Virus record (IMG/VR): IMGVR_UViG_2778261464_000002
Coordinates: 1 to 5,554 of that record
Source: a virus
Lineage: Duplodnaviria > Heunggongvirae > Uroviricota > Caudoviricetes
Length of the DNA stretch: 5,554 nt
Direction: 5' to 3' (one strand)
Shown here: one piece after another, positions 1 to 5,554 of the stretch
Numbering within the stretch: the first letter of the stretch is position 1
Layout of the letters: the number at the start of each line of letters is the position of its first letter
Notes under the pieces: generated by a model
Databases searched by the model: none
The model's input: the letters and a program-made list of their open reading frames with translations, nothing else
What the model was told of the DNA's origin: nothing
Program-made: the position numbers and the translations under genes

Positions 1-445
1 CAGCGAGCTTTGCTGGCGCTCCAGCAGCTTTTGCCGCTGTGCCAATTGGCAGGAGATACCCACCAATTGTTTCACCGGCTTGCGCGTAAGGGTCTGTCGG
101 TCGATCGACAGGGCGATAAACATCATCCAAAACCTTGGGGCCACCAAGCCCTTGGCTGATTGCATTAATCAGACTTGCGCCACCCTGCAATACGTCAAAT
201 GGTATGTTTACCAGACCACGACCAGCCTGCTCTGCAATTTGCCCTGCACTTTGACCACCTGTGAGCCAATCGCCAGCTTGTTGCATCAATGATGGTTCTT
301 CACGTGCTGGTTCATTATTGGCCTGATTAACTGTTTGTTGCTGAACAGCCTGACCAGCAAAATACTCATCAATGGCGGTGCCAATATCTTCCGTGCTCGT
401 GCCATCAGGGAAGGTAAATGTCTTACCGTTTGCAGTTACTTTCAT
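1..445 (-). CDS. gp16: Ejection (DNA-transfer) protein, P22 gp16-like; N-terminal 148 codons only, 3' end beyond window
   Basis: Minus-strand frame is open from ATG 445..443 to the window edge; hand translation gives [37 protein letters not shown]... A GGTGG Shine-Dalgarno at 455..451 sits 5 nt upstream of this ATG; an in-frame ATG at 448..446 is too close to the SD. The start overlaps the gp20-like TGA stop (447..445) by 1 nt. It is the last gene in the conserved P22 order 10-26-14-7-20-16. Missing from the ORF track only because it has no stop inside the window. Confidence 0.8.
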
Positions 446-1860
446 CATTCCACCGTAAATTGAATGCCTGATTTTGAGGTATATGACCCAACCTGATTCC
501 GTGGTTCTCCTGAAGGAGTCGAATCTTGTGCTGGCTCTGCGTCAGTATTCATTGACATATACCGCTTAACGGCACTCCCCAATGATTCACCTTTTTTAAC
601 ATCCAACCCCAATATCTGACCGCCATTACGCGATTGTCCAGGGTTGCCATTCGCGCTCATCCACTCGGCTTTAAACTCATTAAACTGCGCGTTTCGTCGC
701 TCAAGGTTTGCCATTGCATCAAGCCATCTTGCGACCGTCTCAGGGTTATCCATGTCAGTTGGCGCACCCTGTCGAACGATCTCAACGTCTTTATCCGTTG
801 CGGGGCCGGGAGGTAGGAATTTAAGAACCTGACTGTTAACAAGGGCATTTTGGCGAATGCGCAAATCACGCAATGTCGTATCGCTTCCGGTAAGTTTTGC
901 GAACATGTTCTGTGCGTTACCGAACAAACCTGTCGTTGGTTTTTCTGCTCTGAACTGTTGAGCAAGCGCACTCATGGAATTGGCTGAGTTTGATGATGCT
1001 GTGGCATTGTTTACAGCCGTCTCGATGCCTTTTTCCATGTTTACTGACAGCTTAGGTGCTTCGCTAATCAACTGCTGAGCCTTTTCCTGCGCTTGCTGCA
1101 TCTTAAACCCGAACTCTTGCTGATCCAGAGCCAAGCGTTGTGCTGCGATATTGTGCCCAGTCATTGCTGACTGATAGGAAAGGTTTTGCCCTCTCGCCTG
1201 AAGTGCTTCACCAGCCTGATTGCTGCGGATTGTCTCTGCCAGCCTGCTTCGGTCAATCTCACGACCAGCCATCTTGTCCTGCAAATCCCAATACTTTTCA
1301 TGGCCTAATGCAAACTGACCATATTGTCCGATAAGTTGTGATGTTGCTTGTGGGTCTTTTTGATACATGCTGAGGAGTTGTTGTGGGTCTACCCCCTGAT
1401 TAGACAATCTGGTTGCATTGTTTCCAATCCACTTGCTAAATGCATCACCACCCATCATGGAGGCAATTTGACCGCCTGCCGCTAGATTGCCAATTTCATC
1501 ACGCTGGTCTTCGTCTGCCCACTTCATACCAGACTGAATCTTCTCTAATTGACCAGGATATTTGGTCATCAGATCTCGCACCTGCTGTCGATCACCTGAC
1601 TGGATGGCTGCCGCATATTCTTTTTGGAATGCAGCATCCACTTCCTGTTGCTTTGCGGCTTGATATGTTTGAGCGACACTACCAAGCCCCTGCAACGCCT
1701 GAAGGCCGATGTTATTGCGACCTGAGCGCTCCATTTCGTTGTTCTGGCGAATATAGGCCAACGCCTCACTTACATCACTTGCCTTTGGCGCATTTGAGTT
1801 TTGCCCACCGATACCAGCAAGAAAACCGCCTGAGTTGATTCCTTGTTGCCAAGTAGCCAT
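445..1860 (-). CDS. gp20: Ejection (DNA-transfer) protein, P22 gp20-like, 471 aa
   Basis: Complete 471-aa ORF, the same length I recall for P22 gp20. Gln/Ala/Asn-rich and largely helical-looking, consistent with ejection proteins. AGGTGG-type SD at about 1870..1865 precedes ATG 1860..1858. Position immediately after the gp7-like gene and before the gp16-like gene matches P22/Sf6 synteny. Confidence 0.88.
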
Positions 1861-1869
1861 ATTCCCACC

Positions 1870-2544
1870 TTAAAACAATGATCCAAGACCACCGATAACA
1901 CCGCCAGCAAGAGCACCAATACCAGTCCCAATAACAGGAACTGCACTACCAATCATTGCACCTGATGCGGCCCCACCAATGGCACCTGTAGCAAAACTCT
2001 GTAGGCCTGAAGGCTTATTCGCATTTGCTGCCGCTGCTGCCGCCTGCTGTTGGTACAACTGGCTGACGTTGTTAGCGTAGTTCTGCCCGGCGTTTGCCTG
2101 ACCTGTAAGAGCACCAAGGCCAATGTTTGCCAGATTGTTGTAGTTGTTCATCTGACCTGACAGCCAGTTTTGACCGAGTGTAGGTGCGATTGCTGCTAAC
2201 TGGTTTCCTGTCGCTGTAGAGCCTAATCCACCCGTTGCCTCTGCTGCTGCCAGACTCTGATAGCGCGCCTGCCCTGCAAGGTCTTTGTACTGCTGGGAGT
2301 TGTAATACTGGTTAAGCGCCTGACCTTGCCCCTGAAGAGAAGAAAGATTCTGCAACTGTGATACGTACTGCTGAGCGAGTGGCGTGAACGGTGCAAGGTT
2401 CTGCATGTTCGTCTGCCACATTTCACGCTGCAATTCGATACCCTTTTCAGTTGCGCGGGCCTGCTCTTTTGCTCCGCTATCACTGCCACCTTTGCAGTAC
2501 ACAGCTTTGCTGAGGTGCTTATTGGCAATCTGGAAAATTAACAT
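1870..2544 (-). CDS. gp7: Ejection protein, P22 gp7-like, 224 aa
   Basis: 224-aa ORF (P22 gp7 is about 229 aa by recollection). Has a Gln/Asn/Ala-rich low-complexity tract and a Gly-rich hydrophobic C-terminus (GAIGGAASGAMIGSAVPVIGTGIGALAGGVIGGLGSLF). GAGGAG SD at 2557..2552, 7 nt upstream of ATG 2544..2542. Start lies 26 nt inside the 3' end of the gp14-like gene. Confidence 0.85.
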   Translation of the reverse strand: MLIFQIANKHLSKAVYCKGGSDSGAKEQARATEKGIELQREMWQTNMQNLAPFTPLAQQYVSQLQNLSSLQGQGQALNQYYNSQQYKDLAGQARYQSLAAAEATGGLGSTATGNQLAAIAPTLGQNWLSGQMNNYNNLANIGLGALTGQANAGQNYANNVSQLYQQQAAAAAANANKPSGLQSFATGAIGGAASGAMIGSAVPVIGTGIGALAGGVIGGLGSLF

Positions 2545-2998
2545 TCTTTAGCTCCTCGTATTTTGAGCGCGGTAACTGATAAATCGTGATTCCTACAGGC
2601 TTTCCATTGCTGGTATAAGCATCATCAAGGTGACCAACACGGGTAGCGCCAAGCAAACGGATAATTGACCGTCCGTATTTCGTTGTGTCAGGAACCATGG
2701 TGATGCTGTTAAGGAATGGTGAGTTTTCGAGAAGCCATTTGCAGAATAATCGATGCCCTTGCAGTGCATATTCACCACGGAATCCGGGGTCGTACACCGC
2801 ATGGCATTCAACAACGCTATGCCAGAAGTTACGCACTTCATGAACGCCAGCCAGCACTAATCCTTCGTAGATGCCGAGGTATACCGCATCAGGCTTGATG
2901 TAGTATTTATCTCCACTGTCTACGATATTTCCCGTGTTTGCCGGGTTGTTGAGGAATTCTGCAAGCTTCACCGGATTATCGATGAGCTTTATTTCCAT
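2519..2998 (-). CDS. gp14: gp14-like virion/ejection-associated protein, about 159 aa
   Basis: ORF track gives 2519..3001 with a GTG-derived first Met. I prefer ATG at 2998..2996 because GGAG at 3007..3004 is 5 nt upstream of it and only 2 nt from the GTG. This ATG overlaps the needle gene's TGA stop (3000..2998) by 1 nt. Size and position between the gp26-like and gp7-like genes match P22 gene 14; assignment is by synteny and size, not by remembered sequence. Confidence 0.7.
   Translation of the reverse strand: MEIKLIDNPVKLAEFLNNPANTGNIVDSGDKYYIKPDAVYLGIYEGLVLAGVHEVRNFWHSVVECHAVYDPGFRGEYALQGHRLFCKWLLENSPFLNSITMVPDTTKYGRSIIRLLGATRVGHLDDAYTSNGKPVGITIYQLPRSKYEELKNVNFPDCQ
2552..2557 (-). promoter_or_regulatory. 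Shine-Dalgarno (GAGGAG) for the gp7-like gene, embedded in the gp14-like coding sequence
   Basis: Minus-strand GAGGAG at 2557..2552, 7 nt upstream of ATG 2544..2542; it lies inside the gp14-like ORF, which ends at 2519. Confidence 0.55.
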
Positions 2999-3846
2999 CA
3001 CTGCTCCGCAATGATTTTGATGGTTGTGGCAGTAAACGCCGCACCATTAGACTGAATGGTTAACGTGCTGCCATTTGTGGCAAGAAAGCCGTCTTTATCA
3101 ACGCTAAAGAACGTAGCTAACAGGATGTTGTCGGTTGTTGTCGCCGAGTTGCGACTGCTTACCAGTGTGTCAGGAACAGAGCCGGAAAAAGTTAGCTGCA
3201 TTGACCTGTTGGCGGTTCCGCTGGGCCACGTCCCGACAATCGACAGCTTGAAGAACAGGGTTTTGTTCTCGTTAAACACAACCATCTTGTTGTTAACGGT
3301 GTCGAAGAATGGTGCCAACGTGCCGGATGACGGCGTGAGCGTTTTCAGCAGGCTAACAAGGTTGGTCGGCGCTGTCGGGATAGTTACAGATACGCCAGAG
3401 TAAACAACCTCTGATTTCTTGCGAGTAGTGGCATACTCAAGAGCATCGATGCGCGTCTCATGGTCTGAAAGCGTGTTTTGAATGGCGACAACTTCATCCG
3501 TCAGATAATCAATATCGTTTTCTGCTGTCGTTAATCGCGAATCAAGGCCGACTATCGCCGCTTCTGCGTTAGTGATCCTTGTTTCGTGGTCCTGTATCTT
3601 CGCTTCAGCCGATGCCAGTCGAATTTCGTGATCAACCAGAATCACATCCTGCTCATCGTTCCTGACCTGTGCATCATAAGCGCCTTGTCCGGCCTCGTTG
3701 GCCTTGTTCGCCACGTTACCAACATCAGTACCCTGTGCGATAACGTACAGCAGATATGACTGCGAGAAGATATTGCGTGGAAGGATTGATGTATCGAGCC
3801 GTGTAGCCTGAATGATTACCGGCTCATTGAGATTCGAATCAGCCAT
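2998..3846 (-). CDS. gp26: Tail needle (cell-envelope-penetrating) protein, P22 gp26-like N-terminus and coiled coil with Sf6-type C-terminal knob, 282 aa
   Basis: N-terminus [43 protein letters not shown]...NDEQDV closely matches what I recall of the P22 gp26 N-terminal hub-binding domain. Residues about 61-138 carry heptad-like repeats ([44 protein letters not shown]...). Residues about 140-282 are Ser/Thr/Gly-rich and beta-like, and the 282-aa total matches the Sf6 knob-bearing needle rather than the 233-aa P22 needle. GGAGG at 3858..3854 is 7 nt upstream of ATG 3846..3844; the ATG at 3852 used by the ORF track is only 1 nt from the SD. Confidence 0.88.
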
Positions 3847-4384
3847 TAACATGCCTCCACGATTTACCAGACTGGATATTGTGAATCACCGTCTGACTGA
3901 CACAGTATTTTTTAGCAAGCTCTCTTTGATTAACTCCCTTTGATTTCTTTATTTCTATTACTTGCTCATATGAGAGCTTTGAAATTGGATTATTTTCTCC
4001 TTTTAAAGCCGGAAACTTCACCCTGCCTTGAGATGAGCAATGCTTCATATTCTCCTTTTGAGTGCACCACTCTAAATTAGAAGCATTATTATTTTTTGGG
4101 TTGTTATCTATGTGATTTATGAACGGCTTGCCTTCTGGGTTGGGGACGAAAGCAAGAGCGACAAGCCTATGCACAAGCCATTTTACTTTAACTCCATCAA
4201 CACTAAGTGGCAAATATAGATAACCTTTATTATTCTCGTGTTGTTTTAGCCACCGCCCCTTTCTGAGTTGCGTGCTGCCATGCGCAGCCTTAACAACACG
4301 TGAGTGAGAATATACTCGCCCATCCTCTGTTACGGCATATAAACCTTCATATCCAGGAATATCTTTTGCGTTTTCACTCAACAT
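3839..4384 (-). CDS. Free-standing HNH homing endonuclease (NUMOD4-like N-terminus, HNH_3-type core, C-terminal helix-turn-helix), 181 aa
   Basis: Residues 9-26 [18 protein letters not shown] resemble the NUMOD4 motif. Residues 72-115 [44 protein letters not shown] carry the His/Asn spacing of HNH_3-type nucleases. Residues about 136-178 ([43 protein letters not shown]) look like the HTH tail seen in I-HmuI-like enzymes. Strong AAGGAG SD at 4395..4390, 5 nt upstream of the ATG. Clearly lower GC than the flanks. Confidence 0.88.
3854..3858 (-). promoter_or_regulatory. Shine-Dalgarno (GGAGG) for the tail needle gene, embedded in the last codons of the HNH ORF
   Basis: Minus-strand GGAGG at 3858..3854, 7 nt upstream of ATG 3846..3844; it lies inside the HNH coding sequence, which ends at 3839. 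Confidence 0.6.
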
Positions 4385-4389
4385 ATCTA

Positions 4390-4395
4390 CTCCTT
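4390..4395 (-). promoter_or_regulatory. Shine-Dalgarno (AAGGAG) for the HNH endonuclease gene
   Basis: Plus-strand CTCCTT at 4390..4395 reads AAGGAG on the minus strand, 5 nt upstream of ATG 4384..4382. Confidence 0.6.
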
Positions 4396-4405
4396 TAGTT
4401 TCGAT

Positions 4406-5554
4406 TTATGTTACACGAATAGAAAGGCCTGATAATGTAACAGGACCTTTTGCAATAACTCTGAATTTAAATCCAATGAGGCGTCTAACTCGACCAACTT
4501 TTCGCCATAAAACGCGATTGTCATATACAAATGGTTTTTGTAATACGACCATTTGCTCACGACCGTAATTAATTCCATCTGTAGTTGCTGATATAAATAT
4601 TCTATCTATTCTATCACACACGCCGCCAGATGTTTCTAATTCAAGGTCATTTATTAAAACGTTATCTGCCTTTATTAAAGGAGAATATAAAATATGTTCC
4701 TGTTGCTTGTCGTACTGGCTGCTGATGTCGAATTGCAGTTTCCCGGTAACAGATTCCAGCTTATCGCCACACGTTATCTGATTTCCTTCGTAAATGAAGT
4801 CAATAGCGCGGTACACATGGTCATACAGGCCTGTTTTCAGCACACACCATTGCGGACCATTGGCGCTTGAAGATGCGTCGTACACGAGGACATGGCGCGG
4901 AAGGTGGATAATCAGCAACTCATGAGCATCAAATCGCAGCGATTCCATCACACCATCAGCCAGTTCATCAGCAGTGTAGGAGCGGAGTATTTTCTCAATG
5001 CTCGCGCTGGCGATTGGTGATACCTGACCTGATCCGATGATGTATACAGACGGCGCACCCGTTGCCGGATTGCTGATAAACGCATACGAATCAGCGAATG
5101 GCGTTTTGCAGTAGGTTCCGGCGATTCCTTTTTGCACCATCAACGATGGCTGGGCGACATACAAAGCGGCACCAACAGTGGTTGCGCCCGTCAGGGAGAA
5201 ATATTCAATCGTCGATGAGCCAAAGCAGACGATGAAGTCTCGCCATGTTCCGATGCCGATGATGCCGTCAGGCTGCGACTCGGCACGATATTGTGCGCTG
5301 TAGCGGTCAGGATGTGATTCGTCTTCAAGGTCAGTGATGAACCATGAATCAGTTCCGTCTTTTGACCACGCATAACGCCCACGTAAGCGCGTAATGTCGC
5401 GGACTGAGCCTAACTCATACTGAGTAAAACCGCTGTCTGTAGGCCAGTTTGAGACGGTTTTAACCGTGCCATCATAACGATACTCGACCAGTTGACCATT
5501 AACGCCTACCGCCTGTGATGTCCGACCATGCGCCATTGATACACGACCACTTCC
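4406..5554 (-). CDS. gp10: Tail hub protein, P22 gp10-like; 5' end probably beyond window (383 codons in window)
   Basis: Minus-strand frame is open from the TAA stop at 4406..4408 to the window edge. The track's ATG at 5536 has no convincing SD and six sense codons lie upstream of it, so it is probably an internal Met (P22 gp10 is about 472 aa by recollection). Assigned by position immediately upstream of the needle gene, whose N-terminal domain docks on gp10 in P22. The 3' roughly 300 nt are AT-rich. Confidence 0.62.
   Translation of the reverse strand, partial: GSGRVSMAHGRTSQAVGVNGQLVEYRYDGTVKTVSNWPTDSGFTQYELGSVRDITRLRGRYAWSKDGTDSWFITDLEDESHPDRYSAQYRAESQPDGIIGIGTWRDFIVCFGSSTIEYFSLTGATTVGAALYVAQPSLMVQKGIAGTYCKTPFADSYAFISNPATGAPSVYIIGSGQVSPIASASIEKILRSYTADELADGVMESLRFDAHELLIIHLPRHVLVYDASSSANGPQWCVLKTGLYDHVYRAIDFIYEGNQITCGDKLESVTGKLQFDISSQYDKQQEHILYSPLIKADNVLINDLELETSGGVCDRIDRIFISATTDGINYGREQMVVLQKPFVYDNRVLWRKVGRVRRLIGFKFRVIAKGPVTLSGLSIRVT

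Follow-up and report, generated by a model that had tools for sequence, protein, structure and literature searches.

The DNA analysed here, in the following called the window, is a stretch of 5,554 nucleotides (nt) from the IMG/VR record IMGVR_UViG_2778261464_000002 of a P22-like phage, and according to the listing of its open reading frames (ORFs) all the large ORFs lie on the minus strand in the P22-type late gene order. Between the gene for the tail hub, gp10, and the gene for the tail needle, a homologue of gp26, there is an additional ORF of 181 amino acids (aa) with the domains of an HNH endonuclease. A sequence-only reading of this DNA had proposed that a free-standing homing endonuclease gene has been inserted here between a gp10-like hub and a gp26-like needle gene, an assignment that the domains, the modelled fold and the polymorphism of the junction all support. 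The features of this part of the window are the following.

5554..4406, minus strand: tail hub gene gp10, truncated by the window end (Pfam Phage_stabilise, E 2e-224)
4695..5554, minus strand: ordinary part of gp10, truncated by the window end, with 93% identity to Sf6
4406..4694, minus strand: AT-rich divergent end of gp10 (the tail), comprising the last 96 codons and the stop codon, 289 nt, recognised by its GC content, a drop in identity and its linkage to the HNH gene
4385..4405, minus strand: spacer of 21 nt that separates the stop codon of gp10 from the start of the HNH gene, containing the Shine-Dalgarno (SD) sequence AAGGAG at 4390-4395
3839..4384, minus strand: HNH ORF, 181 aa, allele A, with NUMOD4 and HNH_3; assigned as a free-standing I-HmuI-like homing endonuclease gene
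4205..4366, minus strand: NUMOD4, N-terminal beta-sheet DNA-binding region, aa 7-60 (Pfam PF07463; modelled beta strands within residues 6 to 70)
4046..4177, minus strand: HNH_3 catalytic domain, aa 70-113 (Pfam PF13392), with the codon for H91 at 4114..4112 and that for N112 at 4051..4049
3872..3970, minus strand: C-terminal three-helix helix-turn-helix (HTH) DNA-binding domain, aa 139-171 (AlphaFold2 model; by sequence a sub-threshold HTH_3 match)
3854..3858, minus strand: GGAGG within the 3' end of the HNH gene, 7 nt before the needle ATG and conserved in alleles A, B and C
2998..3846, minus strand: tail needle, gp26 homologue with the Sf6 type of knob (Pfam Phage_tail_NK, E 1.8e-109)

Profile searches of the 181-aa protein found both of the domains that the sequence-only reading had named, NUMOD4 (E 2.5e-11, 44.1 bits versus a Pfam gathering cutoff of 23.4) and HNH_3 (E 3.8e-10, 39.7 bits versus 24.8), above their thresholds, whereas the C-terminal HTH motif that it had also named stayed below threshold by sequence (HTH_3, aa 144-174, 17.3 bits versus 23) and is evident only in the structure model. 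The ORF is matched by PHROG 59, 'HNH endonuclease', with E 1.4e-58, and among the PADLOC models only the generic 'homing endonuclease' model matches the protein (E 6.6e-26); no NCBIfam model does so. The AlphaFold2 model, based on 72 homologues and with a predicted local distance difference test score (pLDDT) of 91.9, consists of an N-terminal beta region, an HNH core and three C-terminal helices at residues 139-147, 153-160 and 164-171. Comparison of this model with the PDB by Foldseek gave I-HmuI (1U3E) as the sole match below E 0.001 (E 1.7e-8, probability 1.00), the 182 aligned columns spanning the whole length of the protein including the HTH. By sequence, too, I-HmuI is the sole PDB match below E 0.01; searched with the protein alone it scores E 5.5e-12, with a profile built from the alleles of this analysis E 5.8e-22. 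In the alignment H91, N112, N103 and N90 correspond to H75, N96, N87 and D74 of I-HmuI, in which H75 serves as general base and N96 and D74 are metal ligands. N90, H91, N103, N112 and H115 are invariant across the 72 homologues, H91 and N112 also across the three alleles A, B and C described below. All measures of sequence and fold that were tested place the protein in the I-HmuI-like HNH_3/NUMOD4 family.

Is this gene an insertion, and where are its borders? It had been claimed that gene 10 is followed directly by the needle gene in P22 and Sf6, and this is the case: in Sf6, as in Louie and HK620, the gp10 stop codon overlaps the needle start codon (TAATG) with no gene between them, and in P22 the two codons are separated by 3 nt. 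Alignment of the gp10-needle junctions of P22, Sf6, HK620 and Louie to the window confirmed the insertion, the window carrying about 559 extra bases; CUS-3 matches the window in three pieces only. On the needle side homology to Louie and Sf6 picks up again at window position 3848, and on the gp10 side homology with the paralogue gp41 of phage UPF_BP1 stops at 4407, within the gp10 stop codon. The endonuclease gene proper therefore measures about 559 base pairs (bp; 3849-4407). The gene is thus present or absent at one precise site between conserved genes, as is characteristic of a free-standing homing endonuclease gene, and it constitutes a separate ORF with its own SD between two complete ORFs, outside any intron or intein; no Rfam family, group I introns included, matches in the window.

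The SD of its own that the sequence-only reading had attributed to the ORF is the AAGGAG at 4390-4395, which, as read from the sequence, ends 5 nt before the HNH ATG. Window positions 4245-4407 are 87% identical to the 5' region of the HNH gene of UPF_BP1, and since this paralogue, which resides at the junction of genes 4 and 10, is preceded by the same spacer, the 21-nt spacer belongs to the mobile gene. At the other end, the conserved start of the needle is at 3846 (MADSNLN), common to Sf6 and P22 and equivalent to the start that RefSeq uses in the prophage of locus L011; a mechanical ORF call puts the needle start at 3852 (MLMADS...). With the needle starting at 3846 the HNH stop codon (TGA, 3841..3839) overlaps the needle gene by 8 nt, and the last HNH codons, GTT AAT GGC TGA, read across the TAATG stop/start overlap of the HNH-less phages. 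The GGAGG at 3854-3858 is probably a replacement SD for the needle gene, making up for the lost translational coupling, as its place and conservation suggest. Promoter-like sites occur at chance level (3 found versus 3.0 expected), no terminator was found, folding around the ribosome binding site gave no significant hairpin (z = -1.49), and a search for repeats or a target-site duplication at the borders returned only short chance matches.

The ORF had been described as lying in AT-rich DNA, which holds true (GC 0.40 versus about 0.50 in the flanks), but it had been missed that the AT-rich DNA also covers the last 289 nt of gp10. Beyond the ORF, over window positions 4400-4800, the GC content stays at 0.33-0.39; the last 300 nt of gp10 have a GC content of 0.34 versus 0.51 upstream, and the same gp10 segment in Sf6, P22, HK620, Louie and UPF_BP1 has 0.47-0.51. 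Codon by codon, upstream gp10 is about 90-97% identical to Sf6, HK620 and Louie in nucleotides and 97-100% in amino acids. Nucleotide identity to the same three phages falls to 69-78% in the bin across the boundary (4744-4655) and to 54-66% in the last three 90-nt bins of the gene (below 4654); the corresponding amino acid identity in these divergent bins, the boundary bin included, is 60-80%. Taken over the HNH-less phages compared, the last three bins are at 54-69% (nt) and 60-73% (aa). The switch in identity is sharp and lies at 4694/4695, right after the codons for QYDKQQEH. As the length and reading frame of gp10 are preserved, the gene end has been replaced and not damaged. The foreign block thus exceeds the ORF and extends from 3849 to 4694, including the last 96 codons of gp10. 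In the tail structure of Sf6 the N- and C-terminal extensions of the hub together form an apical domain that binds the head-to-tail adaptor (PMC9728967). The 96 replaced residues include the C-terminal extension of the hub.

How common is the gene, and how tightly is it linked to the divergent gp10 end? Among 5426 complete genomes of E. coli, 838 match the window region and only 56 of these carry the module, so that about 93% of the region-matching genomes are without the gene; the ORF is therefore neither universal at this position nor, as seen above, flank-like in composition, and its HNH/NUMOD match is clear. When the AT-rich tail was counted among the complete E. coli genomes at an identity of at least 83%, all 56 genomes with such a tail had a NUMOD4/HNH gene, or its remains interrupted by an insertion sequence (IS), directly after the tail, and in E. 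coli genomes with ordinary tails the match to the region is confined to gp10. A scan of IMG/VR with the tail peptide, independent of the E. coli set, yielded 80 loci in two groups, AT-rich tails with at least 89% and ordinary tails with 69% aa identity. The HNH gene is present in 27 of 27 loci with AT-rich tail, and a NUMOD4-HNH gene in none of the 53 with ordinary tail. Pattern scans of IMG/VR and of metagenomes for an AT-rich tail that runs straight into the needle gene with no HNH gene between found none, the zero in the metagenomes being weak because the positive control detected only 6 HNH-plus junctions there. What these counts show is a population pattern of flanking DNA inherited together with the HNH gene, not a conversion event. 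The co-inheritance concerns the hub tail and not the needle allele, as needles of the knob type and of the P22 type both adjoin the same HNH allele. As to a direct donor of the AT-rich tail, a scan of GTDB species gave at most 70% aa identity and a search of 5.8 billion proteins returned mostly partial proteins. The one protein hit of 75% was rejected as donor: it proved to be allele A, read from a metagenome contig that contains frameshift errors.

The gene occurs in E. coli in three alleles, all of the NUMOD4-HNH type and at exactly the same junction.

Allele A: 16 E. coli genomes; the allele of this window; WP_021514124
Allele B: 36 E. coli genomes; WP_000947776
Allele C: 4 E. coli genomes; WP_042048397

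Mutual aa identity of the three is only 44-56%, and all end in WRHVNG, overlapping the needle start. Among the 127 phage records matching the window, in which allele A alone was sought, only HZ41 has a close copy of the 181-aa protein (99.4%). RefSeq labels the gene 'NUMOD4 domain-containing protein'. The gp10 tails that accompany alleles A and B are nearly the same (mean identity 96%, up to 99.7%), and the similarity between the HNH genes of A and B is lost 105-160 nt into the ORF at the latest. This suggests that the body of the gene was exchanged by recombination in the conserved 5' part. The fourth relative, already introduced as the UPF_BP1 paralogue (gp41; locus L002, 6518-7102), is 55-56% identical in aa and also occurs at the gene 4|gene 10 junction of some E. 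coli prophages. Over the SD region and the first 140 nt its identity is 87-88%, and alleles A and B and this paralogue accordingly have a common 5' module and differ in the rest of the gene. In the prophage of E. coli K56-43-un (locus L009, 3051-5697) two HNH genes bracket gp10. The one at the gene 4|10 junction is flanked there by a 93-nt duplication of the gp10 5' end; the full-length gp10 begins with a variant copy (MAIQQ...SAVNADYIDQ...), and the resident copy survives as a pseudo-fragment. The gene 4|10 paralogue, too, thus travels with a piece of gp10 of its own. In addition, an IMG/VR locus (L085, IMGVR_UViG_2778261535_000012) has at 2818-3312 on the plus strand a 164-aa ORF with HNH_3 (E 4e-16) at the same gp10|needle junction. 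This protein has a sub-threshold AP2 match and no NUMOD4, and the gp10 tail beside it is ordinary with normal GC content. It looks like an independent colonisation of the same junction. With three alleles and this differently built gene as occupants, the gp10|needle junction is a recurrent landing site. In three E. coli genomes and one IMG/VR locus the HNH gene is disrupted by IS1 or IS3. Insertions of IS3 or IS1 within the HNH gene or between it and gp10 were seen in E. coli ETEC6333 (locus L008, 1746-2974), in M160133 (NZ_CP022164) and in locus L020.

Several observations speak for movement of the whole block. Between loci carrying the same allele the tail and the HNH gene are 96-98% identical versus 90-93% for the gp10 body just upstream, and in E. 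coli, backgrounds whose immediately upstream DNA differs by 7-10% have blocks of 96-100% identity. Two contigs of P22-like phages, L102 and L104, have a gp10 body only 72-73% identical to the window, yet contain the same AT-rich tail and HNH module; their tails are 86-88% (aa) and 77-81% (nt) identical to that of the window and have a GC content of 0.38-0.41 versus 0.53-0.56 in the flanks. The block starts at the 4694/4695 codon in allele A, L102 and L104 and at about 4727, some 35 nt further upstream, in allele B. In a prophage of Providencia rettgeri this junction is occupied by a 69% identical HNH gene and the DNA is uniformly low in GC (0.39-0.44), which fits an origin of the gene in a low-GC host lineage. 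This prophage is not the direct donor since its tail is only 63% identical in nt. All 30 sampled HNH ORFs are intact, and the ratio of nonsynonymous to synonymous substitution rates (dN/dS) is 0.03-0.09 (Nei-Gojobori method, six pairs spanning all three alleles). By these substitution patterns the HNH ORF is under strong purifying selection and its function appears to be maintained.

What, then, is this gene and how might it spread? The identity of the gene, the fold, the insertion polymorphism, the linkage and the purifying selection are seen directly in the data, and we consider it likely that the 181-aa ORF represents an I-HmuI-type homing endonuclease gene, free-standing and established between gp10 and gp26 in a P22-like phage; cleavage, a target site and homing itself we infer by analogy. 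Briefly, the HNH gene, having no promoter of its own, would be transcribed from the late operon and translated from its own SD. When an HNH-plus and an HNH-less P22-like genome meet in one cell, the enzyme would nick or cut the allele without the HNH gene at the gp10/needle junction, close to it or within the ordinary tail of gp10, and recombinational repair from the HNH-plus genome would copy the gene into the HNH-less one. The AT-rich tail is presumably too diverged from ordinary alleles (54-69% nt identity) for crossovers to occur within it, and transfers would be resolved upstream of 4694. Because crossovers could not fall inside the diverged tail, the gp10 tail would be carried along every time and the real mobile unit would be 3849-4694. 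On the other side the 5' end of the needle gene is conserved, and crossovers can therefore occur right beside the gene, so that needle alleles would not be dragged along. The carrier itself is proposed to be immune, since its junction is split and its upstream flank recoded. Drive of flanking alleles and exclusion of related phages, both raised in the sequence-only reading, may occur on this model. It could further be imagined that the mobile unit acts as a 'gene-end replacement cassette': the enzyme would cut ordinary gp10 tails close to the block boundary at 4694, about 290 bp upstream of the HNH gene itself, and with every round of homing the C-terminus of the hub would be overwritten by a foreign, cleavage-immune version. 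Together with the gene 4|10 paralogue this would drive the exchange of both halves of the adaptor-binding apical domain of the hub, and the three alleles would reflect an arms race between the specificity of the nuclease and target variants in competing P22-like phages or prophages. In this full form we regard the idea as speculative and more probably wrong than right.

Some points weigh against homing as the explanation. The metal ligand D74 of I-HmuI is replaced by N90, which is invariant in the family yet differs from the solved enzyme, and since I-HmuI nicks DNA, a break of both strands is not to be taken for granted. A direct donor of the AT-rich block was not found, tails from outside the module reaching at most 70% aa identity, and cleavage, target site and preferential inheritance are deduced and not observed. 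Moreover, the upstream boundary, always after the stretch coding for QYDKQQEH, is nearly fixed, falling within about 35 nt in all backgrounds, which is compatible, too, with one ancient recombination and vertical descent thereafter. According to such a scenario, the tail and the HNH gene were acquired together by one homologous recombination with a remotely related P22-like phage of low GC content, and the block was later distributed by ordinary recombination and descent with no involvement of the enzyme. The tails of L102 and L104 agree with this, as their nt identity is only modestly above that of the gp10 body. Against a passive passenger stand the near-identity of the block in E. coli across backgrounds that differ just upstream, the strong purifying selection on an ORF with an intact active site, the differently built HNH gene at the identical junction and the paralogues at the other end of gp10. 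Together these point to targeting driven by the nuclease, and we give the passive scenario a small chance.

A different objection to a purely selfish element is that strong purifying selection and three deeply diverged alleles exceed what a cycle of gain, decay and loss requires, and could indicate a benefit to the phage. The main rival explanation therefore holds that the nuclease is kept mainly for the good of the phage, as a weapon against competing P22-like genomes, be they co-infecting or resident as prophages, or for some other function, homing being secondary or extinct. The low dN/dS and the consistently intact ORFs agree with this, as does the persistence of three alleles at one site with invariant catalytic residues, which indicates long-term maintenance and not decay, and published work shows phage endonuclease genes serving the phage (PMC13096335). 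Against it stand the presence of the module in a small minority of the matching E. coli genomes and the fact that IS elements have disrupted it in at least three genomes with the prophage retained. This explanation is compatible with homing, and the data do not separate the two; as the main reason for the presence of the gene we think it rather improbable. HNH proteins are also known as accessory factors of DNA packaging: those of the HK97 gp74 type, which act with terminase, are short single-domain proteins encoded beside the terminase genes of cos phages. An HNH protein encoded in the structural, late region of a phage brings them to mind, but the protein described here belongs to a different family by sequence and fold, with three domains (NUMOD4, HNH_3 and HTH), its gene sits between tail hub and needle, away from the terminase genes, P22 and Sf6 use headful packaging (PMC9728967), and the great majority of region-matching E. 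coli genomes do without it. We reject the packaging function on domain architecture, position and presence/absence pattern and see almost no chance for it. The homing endonuclease gene thus remains the favoured explanation.

What does the locus add? The element is of an ordinary, known kind; for its site, the gp10|needle junction of P22-like phages, we found no description in the searchable literature. Free-standing homing endonuclease genes are well studied in T4 and hardly in temperate P22-like phages, which are genetically tractable. The site amounts to a natural experiment: one junction houses three diverged alleles as well as an HNH gene of different build, the foreign gene end is linked without exception, and sequenced prophages of E. 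coli offer hundreds of unoccupied sites. Should the enzyme prove active, this would show a selfish nuclease reshuffling an essential tail-hub gene and biasing the survival of hub alleles in mixed infections. The practical gain is small and concerns annotation, where a gene should be expected at this place and a needle start that overlaps its stop codon.

Downstream of the needle the window contains three further genes of the P22-type late region, and a PHROGs search concurs with the Pfam assignments of the window genes. No tRNA genes were found in the window by ARAGORN.

3001..2519, minus strand: gp14 (Pfam DUF2824)
2544..1870, minus strand: gp7 (Pfam P22_gp7)
1860..445, minus strand: gp20 (Pfam Inj_translocase)

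As called mechanically, the ORFs of gp14 and gp7 overlap by 26 nt (window 2519-2544). The same overlap of 26 nt is found in the annotation of Louie (locus 3999-4024); in Sf6 there is a gap of 2 nt instead. Window positions 302-1472, which comprise the C-terminal half of gp20 and the region before the gp16 start, have no alignment to Louie or Sf6 at the DNA level and the flanks do align, a mismatch that is the usual mosaicism of the ejection protein genes of P22-like phages.

Among characterised enzymes the closest is I-HmuI of Bacillus phage SPO1 (PDB 1U3E), which has the same three-part build of N-terminal beta-sheet DNA-binding region, HNH domain and C-terminal HTH, and whose catalytic His and Asn are conserved in the 181-aa protein at an overall sequence identity of only 27%. 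I-HmuI is encoded within a group I intron of the DNA polymerase gene and nicks one strand. In contrast, the gene described here is free-standing between two structural genes, with no intron RNA according to Rfam. Essentially the same gene, 99% identical and at the same position, exists as WP_021514124.1 and in phage HZ41 (OM022251), in both cases with automatic annotation only. In its arrangement the locus resembles the free-standing endonuclease genes of T4: SegF (soc/56), SegG (32/59) and MobE (nrdB/nrdA) are encoded by cassettes without promoters that sit between or next to essential genes and depend on the host operon for transcription; they cut within the neighbouring gene, at a distance of hundreds of bp, which leads to co-conversion of the flank and exclusion of nearby markers (PMC2988022). 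That the HNH gene is obligately linked to a divergent 3' end of gp10 fits this pattern of 'intronless homing'. However, SegF and SegG are GIY-YIG enzymes of a virulent myovirus, whereas here an HNH_3/NUMOD4 enzyme is found in a temperate P22-like podovirus, and the co-inherited flank is a compositionally foreign block of 289 nt and more than a few polymorphisms. Finally, Barth, Dunham and Seed (2023) described endonuclease genes that lie near or within essential genes or bracket them, domain shuffling, 'HEG islands' and boundaries of genetic exchange (PMC10448857). The gp10 gene of the K56-43-un prophage, bracketed by two HNH genes, and the 5' module shared by alleles A and B and the gene 4|10 paralogue are reminiscent of that pattern; where that work centres on ICP1, T4 and other lytic phages, the arrangement is met here in a temperate P22-like phage.

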